64,000 bases of DNA from an uncultured Candidatus Saccharibacteria bacterium (lineage in GTDB: Bacteria > Patescibacteriota > Minisyncoccia > Phycocordibacterales > JAKFXT01), in assembly GCA_964385825.1 (NCBI GenBank), contig CAYLPX010000001.1:271959-335958 (forward strand), written 5' to 3'. The notes below the pieces were generated by a model, which had not been told where the DNA came from, did no database searches, and was given only the letters and a program-made list of their open reading frames with translations. How positions within the stretch are numbered: the stretch's first letter is position 1; the number at the start of each line of letters is the position of its first letter. Shown one piece after another: positions 4,036-37,664 of the stretch. The position numbers and the translations under genes were made by a program.

Positions 4036-4410
4036 ATGGACGAAACTTCACCTCCCCCAAAATTTAACTTTAATAAAATTTTAGAAACTTTTGGTTTCCT
4101 AATTAGAAACGGATTTGTTTGGTTTATTTTCTCTATATTTGCTGGCCTAGGTGAAATGGATATTAAATTTATTAGTGAAAAGACTTACGAATTGATAGGT
4201 CTTCCTTTTTTTCTTATCTGGCCAATACATACTTTCTACTTCATAAGTGTCCTATTAATTTTATTTTTTAAAAATGAACAGAATAAGTTTTTCATATTTA
4301 TACAAAAAAATCTTAAAACTTCTAAACTTCTTTTATTTACCCCTCTTGTATTTGTTTTCTCGATGGAACTTATTAGACTTATACTTTATTTAATCTTTCA
4401 AAAATTTTAA
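4036..4410 (+). CDS. Hypothetical small membrane protein in a very AT-rich island
   Basis: 124-aa ORF with 3 hydrophobic segments; extreme AT content; no recognisable family. Confidence 0.3.
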   Translation: MDETSPPPKFNFNKILETFGFLIRNGFVWFIFSIFAGLGEMDIKFISEKTYELIGLPFFLIWPIHTFYFISVLLILFFKNEQNKFFIFIQKNLKTSKLLLFTPLVFVFSMELIRLILYLIFQKF

Positions 4411-4422
4411 AAACTCGCTCTA

Positions 4423-4662
4423 CTAATCTAAAATGGTATTTTTAAGTTTTTCGAACGACGGATAATTACTAATGTTTTGTTCCTGAATAAAAGCTGTGTA
4501 TACGGTTTCCAACTCCTCAAGTGCATTTTCAATATTAACAATCATTAGTTGATCCTCTGCAGAATCTTTAATCTCAGGTTTATCTGTTGGTTTTTTAAGA
4601 TCCTTGAGTTCCAATAGTAGTGCTTGTATTGCGTAAAATGTTGTTTTTAAAGTTATTTCCAT
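4423..4662 (-). CDS. Hypothetical small acidic protein (79 aa, from the internal Met)
   Basis: The upstream part of the 188-aa ORF overlaps tRNA-Val and repeats, so only the AT-rich C-terminal 79 codons are plausible. Confidence 0.25.
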   Translation of the reverse strand: MEITLKTTFYAIQALLLELKDLKKPTDKPEIKDSAEDQLMIVNIENALEELETVYTAFIQEQNISNYPSFEKLKNTILD

Positions 4663-4681
4663 AGTACGTTTAATTATAATG

Positions 4682-4711
4682 CAGGATTCGGTCACGCATA
4701 ATTTTTTGCTA
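4682..4711. repeat. 30-bp direct repeat, copy 1 (caggattcggtcacgcataattttttgcta)
   Basis: Identical copy at 4781-4810; the two flank a 69-bp imperfect hairpin segment. Confidence 0.8.
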
Positions 4712-4780
4712 ACTTGTCTTGTGGTCAGGGATATTTTGCGTGTCGTCACACACAAAATTCCACGACCCTGGCTCGCAAGA

Positions 4781-4866
4781 CAGGATTCGGTCACGCATAA
4801 TTTTTTGCTAAAAATTTGCGCTACCCCGCCTCGGCTCATCAGCCTCCGGCCTTCAACTCCTATACC
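4781..4866 (+). repeat. tRNA-associated GGTCAC element, copy E1 (includes 30-bp direct repeat copy 2)
   Basis: About 75% identical to 37527-37600 and 8318-8395 (ggtcacRNataattttttgctaaaaatttNNgcgaccccgNctcggc...cagcc). Confidence 0.7.
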
Positions 4867-4873
4867 GCGCACG
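4852..4873. repeat. Inverted copy of the tRNA-Val 3' end (T-loop plus acceptor 3' strand)
   Basis: ttcaactcctataccgcgcac is the exact reverse complement of 4898-4918; the 21-bp arms are separated by a 24-nt spacer holding a cccct/agggg mini-hairpin. Confidence 0.85.
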
Positions 4874-4898
4874 CGCCCCTCTAAGGGGACTGTCTTAG

Positions 4899-4971
4899 TG
4901 CGCGGTATAGGAGTTGAACCTATGACCCCAATCACGTCAAGATTGTGCTCTACCAACTGAGCTAACCGCGC
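4899..4971 (-). tRNA. tRNA-Val (anticodon GAC)
   Basis: Manual cloverleaf: acceptor GCGCGGT/ACCGCGC, D arm GCTC/GAGC, anticodon stem CAATC/GATTG with loop TTGACGT, T arm ATAGG-TTCAACT-CCTAT. Confidence 0.85.
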
Positions 4972-5040
4972 ATGTAGCGATACTATCAAATCCCCCCGCT
5001 CCTTTCCACTCCCCTCTAAACAAAATTAAAGGTTAACTTA

Positions 5041-5505
5041 TTAATGCCCTTCAAAATAAGCTGTATTCCCCTCAGTTATAGAATGGGCTTTTACGAACCC
5101 ACTATTCACCTCTATCACATACCGAGCTTCCTTTTTAGAAGTTACCGTATTGGGGTATGTCTCTGGTTTAAAATCCTGTGTCACATCTACCACCTTCCAA
5201 TCACTATCAAACCAAACCAGATCGAGCGCAAACTTCATATCTTTCATCCAAAAATCGTAAAACCCTGGTTTATTAAAAACAAAAAGCATGCCAGCATTCT
5301 GTTCCAATTTTTCTCGCCCACTTAACCCCGTAGTTCGCAGAAGCGAATCATTTGCTACTTCAACTACCAACGTTGAGCCGTTGATAGTAAGGTCCCCAGC
5401 TCTCACATTCTCCAGCGTATGCTTATAGTTGTAGTACCAATATCCCACTCCAATACCAAGGAGAAGCAATATGAGAAGTACAATAGCTAGTAAGCGTTTC
5501 TTCAT
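5041..5505 (-). CDS. DUF192 family protein (secreted or membrane-anchored)
   Basis: DUF192-like block GMLFVF...DFWMKDMKFALD; start taken at MKKRLLAIV, an N-terminal TM/signal. Confidence 0.55.
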   Translation of the reverse strand: MKKRLLAIVLLILLLLGIGVGYWYYNYKHTLENVRAGDLTINGSTLVVEVANDSLLRTTGLSGREKLEQNAGMLFVFNKPGFYDFWMKDMKFALDLVWFDSDWKVVDVTQDFKPETYPNTVTSKKEARYVIEVNSGFVKAHSITEGNTAYFEGH

Positions 5506-5506
5506 A

Positions 5507-5908
5507 TTAGACGACACTTTGCGTGCAGTGAGCACAGCGTCTAGCCTCAAGCGGTATTTCACTCATACATTCCTTACACTTTTTAGTTGTGGGGTCAGCG
5601 GGGGGCTCCTTACGTGAACGGGCTATGAGCAAATTCATGGGCTTCACGACAAAGAAGAAAACAGCACTGGCTACGAGAATGAATGAAATGAGAGCATTAA
5701 TAAAATGCCCGTATTTAAAAACGCTCCCATTAAGCGTAAAAGAAAGTCCACTGAAGTCTGGCACTTTAGCAATAGCAGCAATGAGTGGTGTTAAAATATC
5801 CGCCACCAGCGCCGAAACAATAGTTCCAAAAGCGGCACCAACCACTACACCAACCGCCAGATCTACTACATTCCCGCGAAGCAAAAATTGTTTAAATTCC
5901 TGAAGCAT
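5507..5908 (-). CDS. mscL: Large-conductance mechanosensitive channel MscL with a C-terminal CxxC...CxxC zinc ribbon
   Basis: MLQEFKQFLLRGNVVDLAVGVVVGAAFG is the canonical MscL N-terminus; start taken at the internal Met. Confidence 0.85.
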   Translation of the reverse strand: MLQEFKQFLLRGNVVDLAVGVVVGAAFGTIVSALVADILTPLIAAIAKVPDFSGLSFTLNGSVFKYGHFINALISFILVASAVFFFVVKPMNLLIARSRKEPPADPTTKKCKECMSEIPLEARRCAHCTQSVV

Positions 5909-5966
5909 AAATTGCAAGATACTAATAAGTACCCCTATTTTAGCAGAGTTTAAGACGTGGGGTAAG

Positions 5967-6743
5967 TTAGTGTAGCCTACTGCGTATAAAAGCGTCACCA
6001 TCCTCGGCGGCAAGTTGAAGGGCCTCAAAGGAGGTAAAGAGAGCTCGCCTATCAGCAGATGTTTTCTTCCCCTTTAAACACTCGAGGTGTAGGTGTATTC
6101 CGTAGGCAAGTCCTGTTTGTCCCACTATGCCACACTGCACTCCCGCCTTATACATACCCTTACTTGGGGCTGCATCACGCGCATGGAAATATACAAATGT
6201 ACGATCAACACCTGCTACGTAGTAGAAAAAATAGTTCCCAAACTGCGCATGAAGCCCGCTCTCTATCACTTCCCCATCCGCACAAAAGTACATAGGAACA
6301 TTGTCTTCTCCCTGAGTACCGTAGTCCACCCCTGGATGATGCCCTGTTTTGGGATAGTTCACACTATCAGGCACCAGAAAGGCCTGCGTCACATGAAACT
6401 TATCTGCCCGAATGGGCACCGCCCAAACACTACTAGTTGGCGAAGTAATGGTTAAATCCACATGAACGCTTCCCGCTAGAAGTGCGGTGAAAACTTCTTG
6501 TATTTTGGCGCGTGTTTTAGGACCGAGCATACCAGCCCCCATGTCGGTAGCGCTTGCTATCACTCCATACTTTAATTGGAAACGAATAACTGCCGAGACT
6601 GTTTTGTCACCAAAAAAGCCTGTAACAACACCTTCTGGGTAAATAGTTTTATCAAGTGAAAGTAGCTGCTGCAGACGAGTCACGTCAGGGCCCGTATTCC
6701 CTTTTTTTATTTTGGACGTAAAAATCGCAGAAAGTGGTGGCAT
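5967..6743 (-). CDS. M23 family metallopeptidase with N-terminal peptidoglycan-binding domain
   Basis: PG_binding_1-like segment (GNTGPDVTRLQQLL...FQLKYGV) and M23 motifs (HPGVDYG, GIHLHLE). Confidence 0.8.
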   Translation of the reverse strand: MPPLSAIFTSKIKKGNTGPDVTRLQQLLSLDKTIYPEGVVTGFFGDKTVSAVIRFQLKYGVIASATDMGAGMLGPKTRAKIQEVFTALLAGSVHVDLTITSPTSSVWAVPIRADKFHVTQAFLVPDSVNYPKTGHHPGVDYGTQGEDNVPMYFCADGEVIESGLHAQFGNYFFYYVAGVDRTFVYFHARDAAPSKGMYKAGVQCGIVGQTGLAYGIHLHLECLKGKKTSADRRALFTSFEALQLAAEDGDAFIRSRLH

Positions 6744-6780: not shown

Positions 6781-7293
6781 TTAACAACCTGGATAAAGAG
6801 GCTCTTTGGGTATGGCGGGTAAGTTGGGCACAGTTCTTGAGCTACCATCGCTTTTAACCAAATAAAATGAATCCCGGATACAAAAATTACCACCTATATT
6901 TTCTCCATAGTTAGCATCAAATTGATAAGGAATACCCCAAGGATCAAGTCGTGGAAGTTTGCTATATATTCCATTCGTTGCGGTCTCCACCTTAGTAAGC
7001 ACAGTATCTACCCTTGTGAGACATCCTGGCTCTGTGGGAACATGACCATTAGCTGTACAGAATCCGGCCGTCCAATTTCCCTCGGGAGCAATCTGTAAAA
7101 AACGCTGATTTGTTTCTCCTTGAGCAATAGTTATAGCTTTAACTATTTCATTCATTTCATATCTAGCTCTAGCCACCTGCGCTTTATCTCGTGCAGACTG
7201 TAAGGCGGCAAAAATGATGGAAGAAAGAAATCCAATGATTGAAACAACCACAAGAAGTTCTATAAGCGTAAAGCCTGTATTTCTACTCTTCAT
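6781..7293 (-). CDS. Type IV pilin / pseudopilin-like protein (prepilin N-terminal methylation motif)
   Basis: N-terminus MKSRNTGFTLIELLVVVSIIG is a class III signal (G/FTLIE). Confidence 0.7.
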   Translation of the reverse strand: MKSRNTGFTLIELLVVVSIIGFLSSIIFAALQSARDKAQVARARYEMNEIVKAITIAQGETNQRFLQIAPEGNWTAGFCTANGHVPTEPGCLTRVDTVLTKVETATNGIYSKLPRLDPWGIPYQFDANYGENIGGNFCIRDSFYLVKSDGSSRTVPNLPAIPKEPLYPGC

Positions 7294-7649
7294 ATAGTTG
7301 AACCACCACGAGATGGTATTTTCTTTAATTCTTCAAGTGGTAGAGAGTTTCGTAATTCTGGACTTAAATCCTCAAAATACATAACTGGCAAAGGCTGACT
7401 CTTTTCACCAATGCCAAAGTAACTATATGCAATAGTCCCCACCATTAATACAAAAAAGATGCTAGCTATTACTATTAATACCTTAGAAGCTTGAGTCTCA
7501 TCCTTAACTGTACCCCGGGACAACTTCATGACAAACTGGACAAGTTTTGGAGGAGTGTCTTGTCTATAATACTTAATAGCCCCCCAACTATTTTCTCCAC
7601 TCTCAATAATTTCAACCTTACTACTTGAATCTTGATTATATTGGTCCAT
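7290..7649 (-). CDS. Hypothetical single-TM protein translationally coupled to the pilin gene
   Basis: 4-bp ATGA overlap with the downstream pilin gene; one TM helix. Confidence 0.35.
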   Translation of the reverse strand: MDQYNQDSSSKVEIIESGENSWGAIKYYRQDTPPKLVQFVMKLSRGTVKDETQASKVLIVIASIFFVLMVGTIAYSYFGIGEKSQPLPVMYFEDLSPELRNSLPLEELKKIPSRGGSTI

Positions 7650-7766
7650 TGGAGATATTATACTTCAAAAAAACAATATTCACTTATTTTTCAACAACCA
7701 AGAATCCTGGTTACCCATTAAGAAATAATGGTTATGGGTCTCAACAAATAAATGGCTCTCTAAAAA

Positions 7767-8279
7767 TTAAAACCTCCTACTGTCGTAAGCCCAATGAAGT
7801 ACTGCTTGTCTTTGTCGCGGTCGACAAGAAAAATCTCCTTGCCGACACCCGTGCGCAATTTGGGCAATATGTCTTCTAATCGCAATCCACCGCTTAATCT
7901 GCCTCTCATCATCTTCACTTCTTCGTCCCATATAGTACCGGCAATACCACTCAAACCACCCCCTTGGATCCTGTGGATTGATCCAGCCATTACTTCGCCA
8001 AACTGCAAGAGACTGACTAGCATTCACTCCATAAAAATTAAGCTTAGGATCTCGTTTATAGACACCTTCAACCTGAAACTTCGCATGAGTAAACCAATCT
8101 TTAGGAAATTCCTTAGTACAATCACGCATATACACCCCACCAAAAACCCCGAGCGCTAACATTTCCTTAGGAGAGAGGTCGGGTTTAAATCGGGGGTCAA
8201 AGTTTTTGCCCATTGGCTCTGCTAGTGTATAGGTATACCCCTTTTGCATCTTATTATGTACTACAACTATCTTTTTCAT
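7767..8279 (-). CDS. Conserved hypothetical cytosolic protein (W/Y/R-rich motif GWFEWYCRYYMGRRSEDDERQIKRW)
   Basis: 170-aa ORF with host-like composition; I cannot place the family with confidence. Confidence 0.45.
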   Translation of the reverse strand: MKKIVVVHNKMQKGYTYTLAEPMGKNFDPRFKPDLSPKEMLALGVFGGVYMRDCTKEFPKDWFTHAKFQVEGVYKRDPKLNFYGVNASQSLAVWRSNGWINPQDPRGWFEWYCRYYMGRRSEDDERQIKRWIAIRRHIAQIAHGCRQGDFSCRPRQRQAVLHWAYDSRRF

Positions 8280-8302
8280 TATTTTAATTTAAATACTAAC
8301 AT

Positions 8303-8321
8303 GCGGAGATGGGGAGATTTG
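8303..8321. repeat. Direct repeat of the tRNA-Ser(CGA) 3' end (gcggagatggggagatttg), joined to the GGTCAC element
   Basis: Identical to 8479-8497 inside the tRNA gene. Confidence 0.85.
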
Positions 8322-8395
8322 GTCACAGATAAATTCTTTCAAAATTTTCCGCGACCCCGACTCGGCGACAAGCCCAAGCAAAGCTTGTCTTGTAT
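8318..8395 (+). repeat. tRNA-associated GGTCAC element, copy E3
   Basis: ggtcacagataaattctttcaaaattttccgcgaccccgactcggcgacaagcc aligns with E1 and E2. Confidence 0.6.
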
Positions 8396-8479
8396 ACCGC
8401 CTCCGTCTTTCAAATCTCCCCGTAACTCACACAATGATGCTTCGCTCAAATAGCATAAAGCTATTTTCGCGAATCATTG

Positions 8480-8566
8480 CGGAGATGGGGAGATTTGAAC
8501 TCCCGATGGGGTTACCCCCATGCCTGATTTCGAGTCAGGTGCCTTCAACCACTCAGCCACATCTCC
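8480..8566 (-). tRNA. tRNA-Ser (anticodon CGA), long variable arm
   Basis: Acceptor GGAGATG/CATCTCC, anticodon stem CCTGA/TCAGG with loop CTCGAAA, variable arm CATGGGGGTAACCCCATC, T arm GGGAG-TTCAAAT-CTCCC. Confidence 0.85.
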
Positions 8567-8588
8567 AAGACATCCTATCCTAACATTT

Positions 8589-8617
8589 TTGGCAATTTTA
8601 TAGAAAAGTGTTATAAT
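8589..8617 (+). promoter_or_regulatory. Sigma70-type promoter for tRNA-Glu (TTGGCA, 17-nt spacer, extended -10 TGtTATAAT)
   Basis: Near-consensus hexamers with 17-nt spacing; an ~80-nt leader with a hairpin plus T-run precedes the tRNA. Confidence 0.5.
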
Positions 8618-8705
8618 CGGCAGCGAGTGAGAAATCAAAAAGCTCGCTTTTTTGTTTGTCGCGAGCGAACCGATTATATGTAATCATATAGTGTCGCGAT
8701 ATTTT

Positions 8706-8777
8706 GGCCCTATCGTCTATCGGTTAGGACACGGCCTTTTCAAGGCTGGAAGCGGAGTTCGACTCTCCGTAGGGTCA
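8706..8777 (+). tRNA. tRNA-Glu (anticodon TTC)
   Basis: Acceptor GGCCCTA/TAGGGTC, D stem GTCT/GGAC, anticodon stem CGGCC/GGCTG with loop TTTTCAA, T arm CGGAG-TTCGACT-CTCCG. Confidence 0.85.
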
Positions 8778-8807
8778 CACGTAGTAACTTGTGACACAAA
8801 GAATCGG

Positions 8808-8836
8808 AAAAAAGGCGGGTACCCCGCCTTTTTTCC
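8808..8836 (+). terminator. Intrinsic terminator after tRNA-Glu (ggcgggtaccccgcc stem, A- and T-tracts on either side)
   Basis: GC stem-loop followed by TTTTTT. Confidence 0.7.
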
Positions 8837-8858
8837 TGCATGACTGTATAATTAAAAC

Positions 8859-9506
8859 ATGCTCTCCCACCTCATAGCACAATTACAGATAATGATTAGC
8901 ACTTATGGGGCTATTGGGGTATTTATCGCAGCGCTTACAGAAGAGGTCATAGCCCCCATTCCTTCAACACTTGTTGCTATGATTGCAGGTTTTTTCCTTA
9001 TTCCTGCACAATCATCACTCCTTTCTGCTGCTCTAGTCGGTATCATTAAAGTCGCTATACCTATGGCACTAGGTATTAGTTTGGGTTCACTACTCTTCTA
9101 TGGAGTAGCCTACTACGGTGGTAAACCCCTACTTGAAAAATATGGCAGATGGTTCGGTCTTTCATGGAAGAACGTTGGGGCTGCTGAAAAAAAGTTTGCC
9201 AAAAACCGTCGAGGTGAAGTAGCACTATTTCTCATGCGAGCTACCCCCTTCTTTCCAAGCGTTGCTATTTCTACCTTCGCAGGACTGATCCGTTATCCTG
9301 TTAAAAGATTCTTCATAATTTCACTTCTGGGGAGTGCAACGCGTTCACTTATAGTGGCGCTCATTGGCTGGCAACTACGCGACGCCTATCTGAAAATTGC
9401 TGACACCCTCGACCACCTTGAAAGCTTTGTTATGGCCGCTATCATATTTGGAGTGGCGGCATACATCGTTTTCAAAATGACTCGTAAAAAAGGAGCTATT
9501 GACTAA
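8859..9506 (+). CDS. DedA / VTT-domain (SNARE-associated) membrane protein
   Basis: Multi-TM protein with DedA-like motifs (EEVIAPIP, FLMRATPFFP). Confidence 0.75.
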   Translation: MLSHLIAQLQIMISTYGAIGVFIAALTEEVIAPIPSTLVAMIAGFFLIPAQSSLLSAALVGIIKVAIPMALGISLGSLLFYGVAYYGGKPLLEKYGRWFGLSWKNVGAAEKKFAKNRRGEVALFLMRATPFFPSVAISTFAGLIRYPVKRFFIISLLGSATRSLIVALIGWQLRDAYLKIADTLDHLESFVMAAIIFGVAAYIVFKMTRKKGAID

Positions 9507-9597
9507 AAGTATAAAAATTAGTATAAAATAGTCTGATCTGCTCTTTCCAGACTTTGCGAGAGCGGTCTTTTTTATTTACCCACAACTGGAGGTAGCC

Positions 9598-10230
9598 ATG
9601 CAGGGAAAAACAACTGCCGGCCAATCGGCTGGCAAGAAGGACATGGGGGCGCTGTTTGCCTCGCTCAAAGCCGGGGACATGTTGATGATTCCCTGCAACG
9701 AGTGTGGCGAGGCCCATACCCACGATTTTGCCGTTCTCAAGACCGAGCAGCACGACGGCGGAATCAAGATCTGGATTTCAAACCCAAACCCCGGAAAGCA
9801 TCATCTGCTCATGCCAGGGGTCAACCCTCTGTCGTGGGAGGCGGACAAGAAGATCATCTTGGACCGGGATGGTGACGAGTTCCCACTCGAAACCGGTGAC
9901 TTCCAGATCGAACGCGAGGCGGCCATGGCGGCTTACCAGAAACACATGGCTCTGCCGAAAATCCGCTGGCCGAAAGCGAAGATCACGAAAGACGACATCA
10001 ATACCGCACTCGAGGAACTCAAGCCGGGAAACATCGTCGATCAGATCCTCAACATGGCGGAGAACGGTGAATTGAAGACCACCGGGGAAATCGCGGCGCT
10101 GACTCTTGCCAATCTCGGCACCGAACCGACGCCAACATTGGTGGCCGCCGTGCTCAGCGTCAGCTTCCTTCTCAAGGAAATCGGGGAAGCGGCTGAGCTT
10201 TCGGTCAGGGTCGTAAGGATCCGCATGTAA
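9598..10230 (+). CDS. Hypothetical protein in GC-rich mini-island A
   Basis: ~60% GC versus ~40% in flanks, GGAGG ribosome-binding site 6 nt upstream, own terminator; CNECGEAH cysteine pair; no family recognised. Confidence 0.55.
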   Translation: MQGKTTAGQSAGKKDMGALFASLKAGDMLMIPCNECGEAHTHDFAVLKTEQHDGGIKIWISNPNPGKHHLLMPGVNPLSWEADKKIILDRDGDEFPLETGDFQIEREAAMAAYQKHMALPKIRWPKAKITKDDINTALEELKPGNIVDQILNMAENGELKTTGEIAALTLANLGTEPTPTLVAAVLSVSFLLKEIGEAAELSVRVVRIRM

Positions 10231-11946: not shown

Positions 11947-12171
11947 AGATATTGTTATGTAAGTAAGGAATGTTTCAGTTACTGATAAACTAGTAAATCC
12001 ATTAAACACAAACGGGCGCCAACGACCCGATCCTTTGCACCTGCAAAGAGGCGGTTACTCGCTTGTACTCATACTACGCAGCAGAGCACAACATTGGTGC
12101 TATCCACACTCCATAATTTTGTTTTGTAATTAAAAGCACATACTTAAACTATTATTCATCAATTAATTTTT

Positions 12172-12633
12172 ATGTTTCAAATAATTAGTCCATCTGCAGT
12201 GTTCATAGCCTCAATTGCTGCCTACTTGTTCGGCTGGGCTTGGTATTCACCAGTACTTTTCGGTAATACGTGGATGAATCTACTTGGTAAAACTAAAGAG
12301 AAGATGGCAGAGGCCAAAAGTGACATGATGCGAGTTATGGCTTATGGCTTCCTCGTTACTGTAATTACCGCCTACGGTATTGCTGTATTCCTTGCACTTA
12401 CGGAGCCACAAACCCTAATGGGAGCACTCCAAATCGGTATCTTACTTTGCTTTAGCTTCGTGGTGACAACTAAGTTCACTGAGCTTATCTATGAATCAAA
12501 CGAGCCTCATTGGAGCCGCAAGCCTCAAGAATTATTCTTTATTAGTGCCGGGTACCAAGTTGGCAGCTTCATGATCATGACTGCTGTTATTTGGTATGTT
12601 TCTTATGCTGGGATTATTCCTGGATTAATGTAA
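12172..12633 (+). CDS. DUF1761-like membrane protein
   Basis: AAYLFGWAWYSPVLFGNTWM motif; 4 TM segments. Confidence 0.55.
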   Translation: MFQIISPSAVFIASIAAYLFGWAWYSPVLFGNTWMNLLGKTKEKMAEAKSDMMRVMAYGFLVTVITAYGIAVFLALTEPQTLMGALQIGILLCFSFVVTTKFTELIYESNEPHWSRKPQELFFISAGYQVGSFMIMTAVIWYVSYAGIIPGLM

Positions 12634-19170: not shown

Positions 19171-19211
19171 CAAAAATACTCCACATTTTTGTGCCGAGGA
19201 CCGGGCTCGAA
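19171..19211. repeat. 41-bp direct repeat, copy 1 (tRNA-Phe 3'-terminal 22 nt plus 19 nt of 3' flank)
   Basis: Identical to 19324-19364. Confidence 0.9.
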
Positions 19212-19292
19212 TCTTACAGATTCAGTCCCCGTGTTTGGATTTTTTCTCGCACAAGAGTGCTTGAAAAATGCTCAAACAGGCTTCGAGCCCGG

Positions 19293-19336
19293 CACGTTTG
19301 TCTCCCAGACAAACTCCTCGCGTCAAAAATACTCCA
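19293..19336. repeat. T-arm fragment in opposite orientation (ggcttcgagcccggcac) followed by hairpin tttgtct-ccc-agacaaa
   Basis: Matches the tRNA-Phe T-loop/T-stem in the orientation opposite to the gene; the same fragment-plus-hairpin module is seen at the Arg, Gly and Ser(CGA) loci. Confidence 0.7.
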
Positions 19337-19364
19337 CATTTTTGTGCCGAGGACCGGGCTCGAA
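19324..19364. repeat. 41-bp direct repeat, copy 2 (overlaps the 3' end of the tRNA-Phe gene)
   Basis: Identical to 19171-19211. Confidence 0.9.
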
Positions 19365-19969: not shown

Positions 19970-19988
19970 GGTGCTCTCGGCCGGAATC
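19970..19988. repeat. Direct repeat of the tRNA-Arg(CCT) 3' end (ggtgctctcggccggaatc)
   Basis: Identical to 20104-20122 in the tRNA gene. Confidence 0.85.
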
Positions 19989-20030
19989 TCGCCCAACGGT
20001 CGCGGGTGCTTTTCCATTTCGCTCCGCTCA

Positions 20031-20071
20031 ATAAGGAAAAGCCTTTCGATTCCGGCACATAAGCAAAGCAG
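20031..20071. repeat. T-arm fragment in opposite orientation (cctttcgattccggcac) followed by hairpin ataagcaaa-gcag-tttgcttat
   Basis: Same module as at the Gly and Phe loci. Confidence 0.7.
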
Positions 20072-20105
20072 TTTGCTTATTCAGAACACCCTCATTATAT
20101 TCGGG

Positions 20106-20621: not shown

Positions 20622-20642
20622 GTAGTGCGGGTAGGGGTAATC
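20622..20642. repeat. Direct repeat of the tRNA-Gly 3' end (tagtgcgggtaggggtaatcg)
   Basis: Identical to 20766-20786. Confidence 0.85.
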
Positions 20643-20663
20643 GCCCCCCTACAGGAGCAGTAC

Positions 20664-20754
20664 AGCTTTTCCTTATGTTTGCTTGATAGGAATCAATCAA
20701 ACATAAGGAAAAGCTTTTTTGATTACCCCACACAGACAAAGCAGTTTGTCTGTT
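20664..20754. repeat. 18-bp perfect hairpin, T-arm fragment in opposite orientation (ttttgattaccccacac), and hairpin acagacaaa-gcag-tttgtctgt
   Basis: agcttttccttatgtttg / caaacataaggaaaagct is a perfect inverted repeat; the module order matches the Arg and Phe loci. Confidence 0.7.
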
Positions 20755-20767
20755 TACCACAGATTTA

Positions 20768-28468: not shown

Positions 28469-28822
28469 GGTTCTTGTTGGATAACCGCGCTTAGCCCTTT
28501 TGGGGCTTAGTGAGGAAAGTCCGGGCATAGCTAGGCTTTAGCCTAGAGCACGGTAGCGGGTAACCCCCGTCTGTGGCAACACAAGAGGTGCGAACAGTGA
28601 CGCTGATGTCGAAAGGCTAGGTTCCCTCTTATTTAGTTAAGGGAAAATCTTGTTGAAAAACAAGGGTGCAACGGCAAAATCCTTACCACTATGCAAGGCC
28701 GTGCTCTGGGGCAACCCAGAGAGTGCCGCTTGAGCCCATCAGCAATGGTGGGCCTAGATAAATGGTTATCGTTTTGTTTCGCAAGAAATGAAATACAGAA
28801 CCCGGCTTATAGGCAGGAACAC
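28469..28822 (+). ncRNA. rnpB: RNase P RNA (bacterial type A)
   Basis: P4 halves GAGGAAAGTCCGGGC and ACAGAACCCGGCTTA; GCTTGAGCC...GGGCCTAGATAAATGG matches the E. coli P15-P18 region; P1 pairs ggttcttg with caggaac. Confidence 0.85.
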
Positions 28823-28830
28823 AACAATGG

Positions 28831-29715: not shown

Positions 29716-29889
29716 AATTTCTTATAGCTAAAATGTAGACAAATTTTATTTTAGTATCCTAACATTGTGGGTAGTTGTGGATAAAAGGGTGTATTAATGC
29801 TTATATGGCTTATAATGAACCAAGTAAGCATAAGCGCATGCAATGCTTGCGGATAAAAAGCCACAGTTGATATTTGAGAGACAAAATCG

Positions 29890-29972
29890 TACCGGTGACG
29901 GGATTTGAACCCGCAATCCAGCCAGGAGCTAGTTCCGTAAACTAGTGCGTATACCAATTTCGCCACACCGGC
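29890..29972 (-). tRNA. Class II (long variable arm) tRNA, Leu-like body; anticodon reads ACG in my manual fold; identity uncertain
   Basis: Acceptor GCCGGTG/CACCGGT (G1-U72), D arm GCG-AAATTGGTATA-CGC, anticodon stem CTAGT/ACTAG with loop TTACGGA, 14-nt variable arm, T arm GCGGG-TTCAAAT-CCCGT, discriminator A. Confidence 0.6.
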
Positions 29973-37359: not shown

Positions 37360-37379
37360 GCGGAGACGGAGAGATTTGG
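37360..37379. repeat. Imperfect copy of a tRNA-Ser 3' end (gcggagacggagagatttgg) joined to a GGTCAGGAATATTTT motif
   Basis: 17/19 match to 37412-37430 (tRNA-Ser GGA) and to the Ser(CGA) 3' end; ggtcaggaatatttt also occurs at 4723-4737 as ggtcagggatatttt. Confidence 0.7.
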
Positions 37380-37413
37380 TCAGGAATATTTTAGGATCCC
37401 TCCCATACAGAGC

Positions 37414-37526: not shown

Positions 37527-37600
37527 ATGCGCACTAGGTCACAGATAATTTTTTGCTAAAAATTTCTGCGACCCCGTCTCGGCTCGTCAGCCTCCGACTC
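37527..37600 (+). repeat. tRNA-associated GGTCAC element, copy E2
   Basis: ggtcacagataattttttgctaaaaatttctgcgaccccgtctcggctcgtcagcctccg is about 85% identical to E1; preceded by a scrambled copy of the tRNA-Ser D-arm region (actatgcgcactag). Confidence 0.7.
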
Positions 37601-37664
37601 TTCGGGTTTTACATTCAACCCGAAGCACTATACGACGTCTCCAGTCTGGCAAAGATAACAGAAA

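Follow-up and report, generated by a model that had tools for sequence, protein, structure and literature searches.

The 21-nt inverted copy of the tRNA-Val 3' end found immediately downstream of this gene represents the antisense arm of a small folded module, probably an RNA structure, that is tied to tRNA genes. Such modules comprise approximately 110 to 175 nt, contain no ORF and are located directly downstream of tRNA genes in Patescibacteria (CPR), to which all relatives found belong. On the tRNA strand, the order is tRNA, trailer (often with a terminator-like hairpin), arm, conserved cargo and direct copy of the tRNA 3' end beginning in the T-loop. The arm is reverse-complementary to the T-loop and T-stem 3' strand of its own tRNA and sometimes, in fact often, to the acceptor 3' strand, too. 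In the window, i.e. the entire 64-kb stretch of DNA analysed here, five of eight tRNA genes are followed by a complete module and a sixth by remnants. On balance, we consider it probable, if only just, that the inverted copy at tRNA-Val constitutes the 5' anti-tRNA arm in a 'tRNA-tail module' of type A and represents an ORF-less Patescibacteria family that would fold as RNA and would have been inserted at the T-loop.

The gene for tRNA-Val(GAC) is located on the minus strand at 4899-4971 (4898 in one call; ARAGORN; Rfam RF00005, 66 bits) and does not encode the CCA end. The features described below for this locus are on the same strand. A repeat search revealed a single strong inverted repeat in the region, with two arms of 21 nt (4898-4918 and 4852-4872) that are 100% complementary and separated by 25 nt. 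Arm 1 comprises the tRNA T-loop, the T-stem 3' strand, the acceptor 3' strand, the discriminator and one trailer base. This means, the repeated segment extends from T54 to the discriminator A (4899) and includes one genomic base, the C at 4898. Arm 2, GTGCGCGGTATAGGAGTTGAA, is the 5' anti-tRNA arm of the module and a 21/21 Watson-Crick reverse complement of the resident tRNA 3' segment. The perfect inverted copy described in the initial annotation was thus confirmed at 21 nt; only the leading G of the 22-mer quoted there lies outside the repeat. The trailer between the arms (4873-4897) carries the mini-hairpin CCCCT-TAG-AGGGG at 4876-4888, as had been noticed, and measures 25 nt instead of the 24 nt given before. 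Sequence and comparison with other modules place this spacer where they have a trailer/terminator-like hairpin or hairpin 1.

Arm 2 is followed by the type-A cargo (4789-4850), which consists of the two hairpins P1 and P2, is supported by covariation and contains an invariant G.U pair. P1 (4828-4850), GCCGGAGGC-tgatga-GCCGAGGC, is characterized in an alignment of 27 copies by covariation of its proximal pair and by conservation of its internal loop. P2 (4789-4827), GGGGU-AGCGCA-A/U helix-UGCGU-GACC, was delineated by fold and alignment, and its right boundary is the conserved GTGACC. At 4780-4788, a 9-nt direct copy of a tRNA-Val T-loop/T-stem 3' strand, GAATCCTGT, was recognized by comparison with other lineages. 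Further downstream, a second, 5'-truncated type-A copy (4723-4774) was identified by eye against the type-A consensus: It comprises the P1 3' strand GAGCCAGGGU and a P2-like hairpin ending with CCCTGACC. This truncated copy is flanked by the two copies of a 31-nt direct repeat detected by the repeat search (4781-4811 and 4682-4712; overall 4682-4811), the second of which is composed of the P2 3' half and GAATCCTG. L001 and L004, two metagenome contigs from the same strain, end at window position 4711, within the second 31-nt copy, and the repeat next to tRNA-Val appears to break assemblies. The segment GAATCCTGTCTTGCGAGCCA was considered as the 3' end of another tRNA and rejected: Its second half is the P1 3' strand of the truncated type-A copy, and its first 9 to 10 nt match tRNA-Val of other lineages.

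An exact 21-mer reverse complement is expected by chance with a probability of about 2e-13 per position, or of about 1e-10 to 2e-10 when some 100 placements at eight tRNAs are allowed. Therefore, the inverted copy at tRNA-Val is not accidental. A one-off rearrangement scar without function, e.g. from an inversion between two tRNA-derived att sites, might be read from the visibly rearranged locus with its truncated second module and its 31-nt duplication. However, the same arm layout is found at dozens of tRNAs in many genomes and at a constant position relative to a conserved cargo. This recurrence, together with the chance probability of about 1e-10, excludes both coincidence and a singular scar, and we leave hardly any probability to either. 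The term 'recombination scar' used in the initial annotation captured the insertion-like appearance at the tRNA T-loop region, but a mere scar does not agree with a conserved, covarying cargo.

Four other tRNA genes of the window have complete modules. They were found at tRNA-Ser(CGA) (type A, 8303-8478, arm at 8409-8421), tRNA-Phe(GAA) (type B-like, 19171-19343, arm at 19282-19293), tRNA-Arg(CCT) (type B-like, 19970-20103, arm at 20045-20056) and tRNA-Gly(CCC) (type B-like, 20623-20767, arm at 20718-20729). Here, the inverted copy of T-loop and T-stem 3' strand comprises 11 to 13 nt and is situated 38 to 57 nt downstream, and a direct 3'-end copy of 18 to 42 nt starting from the T-loop follows 60 to 100 nt past the arm. 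At tRNA-Phe, the duplication amounts to 41 to 42 nt and includes 20 nt of the trailer, which is also the case in L029. Since arm and direct copy are both present in complete modules, the inverted copy and the direct repeats reported earlier are parts of one unit. Their kinship had been seen correctly, although the inverted copy is not the 'inverted counterpart' of direct repeats elsewhere, because each complete module has both. The alternative that the arm is a partial tandem tRNA duplicate was discarded: The arm, which also covers the T-loop, is genuinely reverse-complementary, and at tRNA-Arg(CCT) it reads GCCGG where the tRNA 5' strand reads GTCGG.

Downstream of tRNA-Ser(GGA), a truncated module and a diverged 3' copy remain (37360-37392). 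Upstream of the same gene, a type-A unit (37528-37642) is located between copies of the tRNA's 5' end and its D-loop: One flank is a copy of the first 17 nt of the tRNA (GGAGACGTCGTATAGTG), the other a copy of D-loop/D-stem (TAGTGCGCA). A similar upstream unit was observed at tRNA-Asn of L026; its side next to the tRNA carries positions 8-19 as an inverted copy. Among the eight window tRNAs compared, only tRNA-Glu and tRNA-Arg(ACG) display neither module nor remnant. The latter (29889-29972, 84 nt) has a variable region that is unusually long for an arginine tRNA. The window also encodes ftsA/ftsZ and a class-A RNase P RNA (28469-28825), which mark the DNA as bacterial. With only 128.9 bits (gathering score 100), the RNase P RNA seems to be divergent or reduced.

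Throughout 1.1 Mb of related CPR DNA, modules are present at about 45 of the 122 tRNAs with sufficient downstream sequence. The end of the arm always complements T54-C56 (..YGAA). Its coverage comprises at least positions 57-65 and reaches through the acceptor 3' strand in many cases. Long contiguous arms were found at tRNA-Val of the window (21 nt) and in L046 (19 nt), L030 (18 nt) and L089 (17 nt). In contrast, the arms of L018, L020, L036, L041, L045 and L057 are split by a conserved hairpin, often GCAAACYGCUUUGC, at the boundary between T-stem and acceptor. Where the arm is long and contiguous (window Val, L046, L089, L025), the direct copy tends to be very short (5 to 11 nt), whereas short arms are mostly accompanied by full-length copies. 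Across the family, between 5 and 42 nt are duplicated, with a fixed right junction in the T-loop. The cargo comes in at least three types. In type A, the GTGACC end directly precedes R57 of the copy. Type B is composed of one long hairpin and a GUACUG..UGUAA linker with a small hairpin, in which T54-C56 of the copy take part. L052, L020 and L069 carry further types.

A scan anchored on ftsZ yielded 80 related loci (FtsZ identity 60-78%). From this set, the window and L030, which was obtained in the pattern scan described below, 29 tRNA-Val(GAC) loci were compared. Eight of them have an arm that measures 11 nt or more. Six carry type A (window, L030, L045, L046, L057, L058), L060 carries type B, and L069 two other units in tandem. 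L052 has only a remnant, and at the other 20 loci no module was found; behind several of these tRNAs comes a plain terminator or, directly, a gene. Hence, the inverted copy recurs among relatives without being conserved at the orthologous site. Its absence from all relatives, which the initial annotation had named among the observations that would speak against it, was not encountered. L046 and L089 resemble the window in that a long perfect arm is combined with a direct copy of only 5 to 6 nt. In the window, the 9 nt after GTGACC (GAATCCTGT) correspond to the T-arm of tRNA-Val from other lineages (L052: TTCGAATCCTGT) and not to the resident TTCAACTCCTAT, an unusual T-arm which the Val arm matches at 21/21 positions. 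Two readings are possible: The resident 3' segment and the arm might have come with the element, so that the short copy would be the remainder of the original tRNA end, or the arm might have tracked tRNA-Val over time. As the region has been rearranged and the direct copy is reduced to 9 nt, the perfect arm opposite the tRNA is the most visible feature left. The closest relative found, L038 (FtsZ 78% identical), has a tRNA-Val without module at about 12100-12480 and, in addition, two further tandem tRNA-Val-like units in which GCGC and an insert of about 28 nt (tttccgccgaaggacggatca.cctat) take the place of the 5' acceptor strand.

The cargo itself was analysed by comparison of type-A copies. 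The exact core pattern GCCGAGNCGGGGTNGCNNAAANTTTT was scanned in GTDB genomes, one per species, and matched 22 loci, all in Patescibacteria MAGs. About two thirds of them have a predicted tRNA on the same strand at most 300 nt upstream, and where a tRNA is present, the arm matches it. A profile search added type-A copies in the ftsZ-anchored loci. In an alignment of 27 copies, from which the variable terminal loops were cut out and replaced by a fixed linker, 90% of the cells are paired, compared to 77% in shuffles (0/500 reached the observed value) and 26-41% when partners were slid. The proximal P1 pair 15:33 is found in all four Watson-Crick combinations (AU 10, GC 9, CG 6, UA 2) and the P2 pair 44:51 in three (GC 10, AU 9, CG 8); both are paired in 27/27 sequences. 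Pair 41:54 is G.U in 27/27 sequences. Hence, the type-A cargo shows the compensatory changes across divergent sequences that characterize a structured non-coding RNA. The wobble pairs on the tRNA-sense strand indicate that the folded molecule is either an RNA transcribed in the direction of the tRNA or top-strand DNA; because G.T wobbles are tolerated in folded single-stranded DNA as well, the G.U pairs do not prove a fold at the RNA level.

In a scan of the window with Rfam 15, only tRNA and RNase P reached the gathering score; three module regions gave weak matches far below theirs. A hammerhead ribozyme was considered on account of the P1 loop at tRNA-Val (CUGAUGAG) and rejected, because other copies have a variable loop or long hairpins in this place and no ribozyme was detected with Rfam. 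Type-A-like hairpins were also observed away from any tRNA, in L069 (about 5800-5910) and L038 (about 6330-6420), where they are closed by inverted repeats of 13-19 bp that are not derived from tRNA. They may be free-standing relatives of the cargo.

What the arm pairs with can be approached by folding. The minimum-energy fold predicted for the tRNA-Val read-through RNA is dominated by the 21-bp arm helix (-56.1 kcal/mol), compared to -36.1 kcal/mol with the cloverleaf kept. The earlier proposal that read-through transcripts sequester the acceptor 3' strand is thus thermodynamically correct. When the tRNA is removed, the downstream RNA alone is predicted to pair its arm with the residual copy and to close P1 and P2 (-45.8 kcal/mol). 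The Val arm is complementary to the tRNA at 21/21 positions, yet only about 9-10 nt of it pair with the residual copy, so that here an arm:tRNA pairing fits better than an arm:copy pairing. Over positions 57-65 of type-A modules, however, arms and copies match the tRNA about equally (158/189 and 165/189, respectively), and neither partner is clearly favoured.

A terminator had been proposed as the role of the Val hairpin. This part of the initial annotation could not be upheld: Arm 2 is followed by GGCCGGAGG, no U-tract is present after the hairpin, and a scan of 4300-5200 for intrinsic (Rho-independent) terminators yielded no terminator-like site. That the hairpin is a processing signal, as also suggested, is possible. 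A perfect duplex of 21 bp could be cut by a double-strand-specific RNase, and the very stable helix is located right at the tRNA 3' end. Nevertheless, the arm runs straight into a conserved structured cargo, arms at other tRNAs measure only 11-13 nt, and an ordinary terminator hairpin is found between tRNA and arm in many relatives. As a full explanation, a tRNA-Val-specific terminator or 3'-end processing hairpin is accordingly very improbable. The strong terminator-like hairpins between tRNA and arm (L045, L046, L057, L092) in turn argue against a simple co-transcription of tRNA and module.

The same pairing data might be explained by a cis-acting switch on tRNA maturation. The arm would pair either with the tRNA 3' half, thereby blocking cloverleaf formation and 3' processing, or with the copy, thereby releasing the tRNA, similar to the alternative 1:2 and 2:3 pairings of an attenuator; the cargo would be a sensor or a protein-binding site. 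In read-through RNA from tRNA-Val, the advantage of the arm helix amounts to about 20 kcal/mol, and the Val arm matches the resident tRNA at positions at which the residual copy differs. Furthermore, the Watson-Crick complementarity between arm and resident tRNA at positions 57-65 is nearly always perfect, although this is in part an ascertainment effect, as arms were picked by their match to the tRNA. Three observations do not fit a regulator: Most tRNA-Val loci of the relatives and several tRNAs of the window lack a module, several unrelated cargo types share one arm layout, and arrays as well as truncated remnants would not be expected. We regard a switch as possible, but unlikely.

Several lines of evidence suggest an element that is inserted at the T-loop. 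Presence or absence of a module at the same tRNA varies among relatives, and cargo types A, B and C are found at the same tRNA in different genomes. Tandem arrays can be of mixed type (B-A in L029, A-B in L053, and L069) or of the same type (L036, L041). Truncated remnants keep the right end and the copy (window 37360-37392, L052), and a truncated remnant in L061 likewise retains the right end. A GGTATACAAGAC extension defining a cargo subtype is common to Ser-CGA of the window, Ser-GCT of L037 and Glu of L089, and nearly identical cargos were found in one MAG at the tRNAs for His (L027) and Gln (L031). Larger insertions were detected at two loci. At tRNA-Glu of L095, a 2.9-kb insertion (6800-9725) ends in a type-B module and a distal copy and encodes a Swt1-like HEPN protein (HEPN_Swt1) with an N-terminal HTH as well as four small HTH proteins. 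At tRNA-Asn of L026, an insertion (4130-6170) ends in a type-B module and a distal 3'-end copy and encodes a 475-aa repeat protein without Pfam match. As no strain-level pair of a filled and an empty site was found, the boundaries of the insertions are putative.

Neither in the window nor next to modules nor in the inserts of L095 and L026 was a recombinase, integrase, transposase or reverse transcriptase found, and the genes over about 1-64 kb of the window have Pfam domains of housekeeping type. Carriage by phages was considered and discarded: In viral contigs, the type-A pattern had no match, a loose pattern yielded only G+C-rich chance matches, and none of the 120 matches of the hairpin-1 14-mer is located downstream of a tRNA. 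A MITE was rejected since the inverted segments differ at each tRNA, copying their target, and the duplicated length of 5 to 42 nt is not fixed. A retroelement primer-binding site for a mature tRNA was rejected as well, because C75 and A76 find no partners in the bases 5' of the Val arm (CGC); in L030, L046 and L089, the complementarity of the arm continues into the genomic trailer and not into CCA. An IS91-type insertion after GTTC or ends of the IS200/IS605 type, weighed on paper only, would call for a conserved element end at a place where a tRNA-specific sequence is found.

A serious alternative to a folded RNA is an attC-like folded-DNA site. Arm, cargo and copy would constitute a folded single-stranded DNA recombination site similar to integron attC or CTX attP with the T-loop as attachment point. 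The modules would be empty or minimal cassettes and the larger insertions gene-carrying ones, and a recombinase encoded elsewhere would read the top strand. The module is indeed an imperfect inverted repeat (arm and copy) around a structurally conserved centre, its right junction is fixed inside the T-loop, mixed-type arrays occur at single tRNAs, and the gene-carrying insertions of L095 and L026 end in a module and a distal copy. Moreover, every non-Watson-Crick pair is a G.T on the tRNA-sense strand and would be tolerated in folded DNA as well. By contrast, an integrase was not found in any inspected neighbourhood, and an integron-type core site is not evident. The cargo always has the orientation of the tRNA, which would be needed by an RNA, but not by a DNA site. 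We regard this alternative as unlikely, though worthy of attention.

For the favoured tRNA-tail module that folds as RNA, the following sequence of events is conceivable. The module would be transcribed in the direction of the tRNA, either with it or after it. Upon release of the tRNA, the arm would zip onto the downstream copy of the 3' end. The resulting arm:copy helix might resemble an acceptor/T-stem and close a three-way junction, yielding a tRNA-like piggyback RNA; a tRNA-like topology would arise when a side hairpin splits the arm. In unprocessed read-through RNA, the arm would instead sequester the 3' half of the tRNA itself. The module might have originated by an insertion aimed at the tRNA T-loop that duplicated or rebuilt the tRNA 3' end and was moved by a factor encoded elsewhere. 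The match between arm and tRNA could be due to template-directed copying from the target or to co-inheritance with a replacement 3' end borne by the element; both fit parts of the data. Taking this one step further, modules could be mobile elements of a kind not recognized before, i.e. ORF-less units of structured RNA or ssDNA for which the T-loop of any tRNA gene is an insertion site; such a unit would restore the 3' end and have its arm templated by the target. It would be self-retargeting and nucleic-acid-guided, would use the T-loop as a universal landing pad and would occasionally bring gene cassettes behind it. This proposal is tentative and less likely than not. That the underlying mechanism is new is likewise below even odds, yet a serious possibility.

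If the interpretation as tRNA-tail modules is true, one tRNA-attached folded family that is absent from Rfam 15 fills a sizeable share of the scarce intergenic DNA in streamlined genomes. It would also account for tRNA 3'-end repeats that break assemblies, as exemplified by the two contigs ending in the 31-nt repeat. In addition, it would represent a natural system with an antisense segment always matched to the adjacent target and could reveal a new mechanism of targeting or recombination. Finally, it would raise the question whether trailers with the ability to unfold tRNAs affect tRNA maturation in CPR bacteria.

A full-text literature search with incomplete coverage did not yield a description of such modules, but similarities to several known systems exist. 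Like Rho-independent terminators after tRNA genes, they place a stable hairpin immediately 3' of the tRNA; unlike these, the Val stem is made from the tRNA itself, has no U-tract and is followed by a conserved folded element. Nucleic-acid-guided mobile elements (IS200/IS605 with guide-target pairing, IS110 with bridge RNAs, type V-K CRISPR-associated transposons with tRNA-homing guide RNAs) also have a short target-complementary segment by the insertion site and use tRNA genes as safe harbours. In contrast to them, modules lack a transposase or Cas gene, their arm complements a sequence that is duplicated as well, and no family-specific RNA or protein signature was detected. With tRNA-like structures (the tmRNA domain, viral 3' ends, mascRNA-type RNAs that tRNA enzymes process), modules would share a predicted coaxial helix similar to acceptor and T-stem, a side hairpin and the 3' sequence of a real tRNA. 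They differ by the large insert in the T-loop and by a mimic that copies the neighbouring tRNA and not one fixed type. This likeness of the arm:copy helix is a prediction obtained by parsing of the sequence and an energy-based fold. Integron attC and CTX-type folded attP sites are alike in their imperfect inverted repeats, in a centre that is conserved in structure rather than sequence and in their arrays, and recognition of one folded strand is plausible for both. Unlike in these sites, the inverted repeat of the module is copied from the target tRNA, no integrase or core site was found, and the orientation is tied to tRNA transcription.

Among the integrative elements of tRNA genes (tyrosine-integrase islands and prophages), there are some that attach at the T-loop sublocation. 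As in these elements, a direct repeat from the T-loop to or past the tRNA 3' end flanks the insert and the tRNA stays intact. This repeat of the tRNA 3' part is present at Ser-CGA, Phe, Arg-CCT, Gly-CCC and many loci elsewhere, while at Val it comprises only 9 nt. Tandem accretion at one tRNA, degenerate remnants and the 2.9-kb gene-carrying insertion with the same ends as the modules are further common properties. In contrast, most modules comprise 110-175 nt without an ORF, and the integrase or recombinase typical of a tRNA-gene integrative element is lacking in their vicinity. Furthermore, they have an antisense arm tailored to the tRNA and a conserved, covarying folded cargo, and they are found at many tRNA species per genome, among them six of eight tRNAs in 64 kb, five times complete and once as remnants. 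The tRNA-gene integrative element with T-loop attachment sublocation is, thus, the closest known kind, from which the modules are set apart by their small size (110-175 nt), the lack of a gene, an antisense arm matched to the target and a conserved folded cargo.
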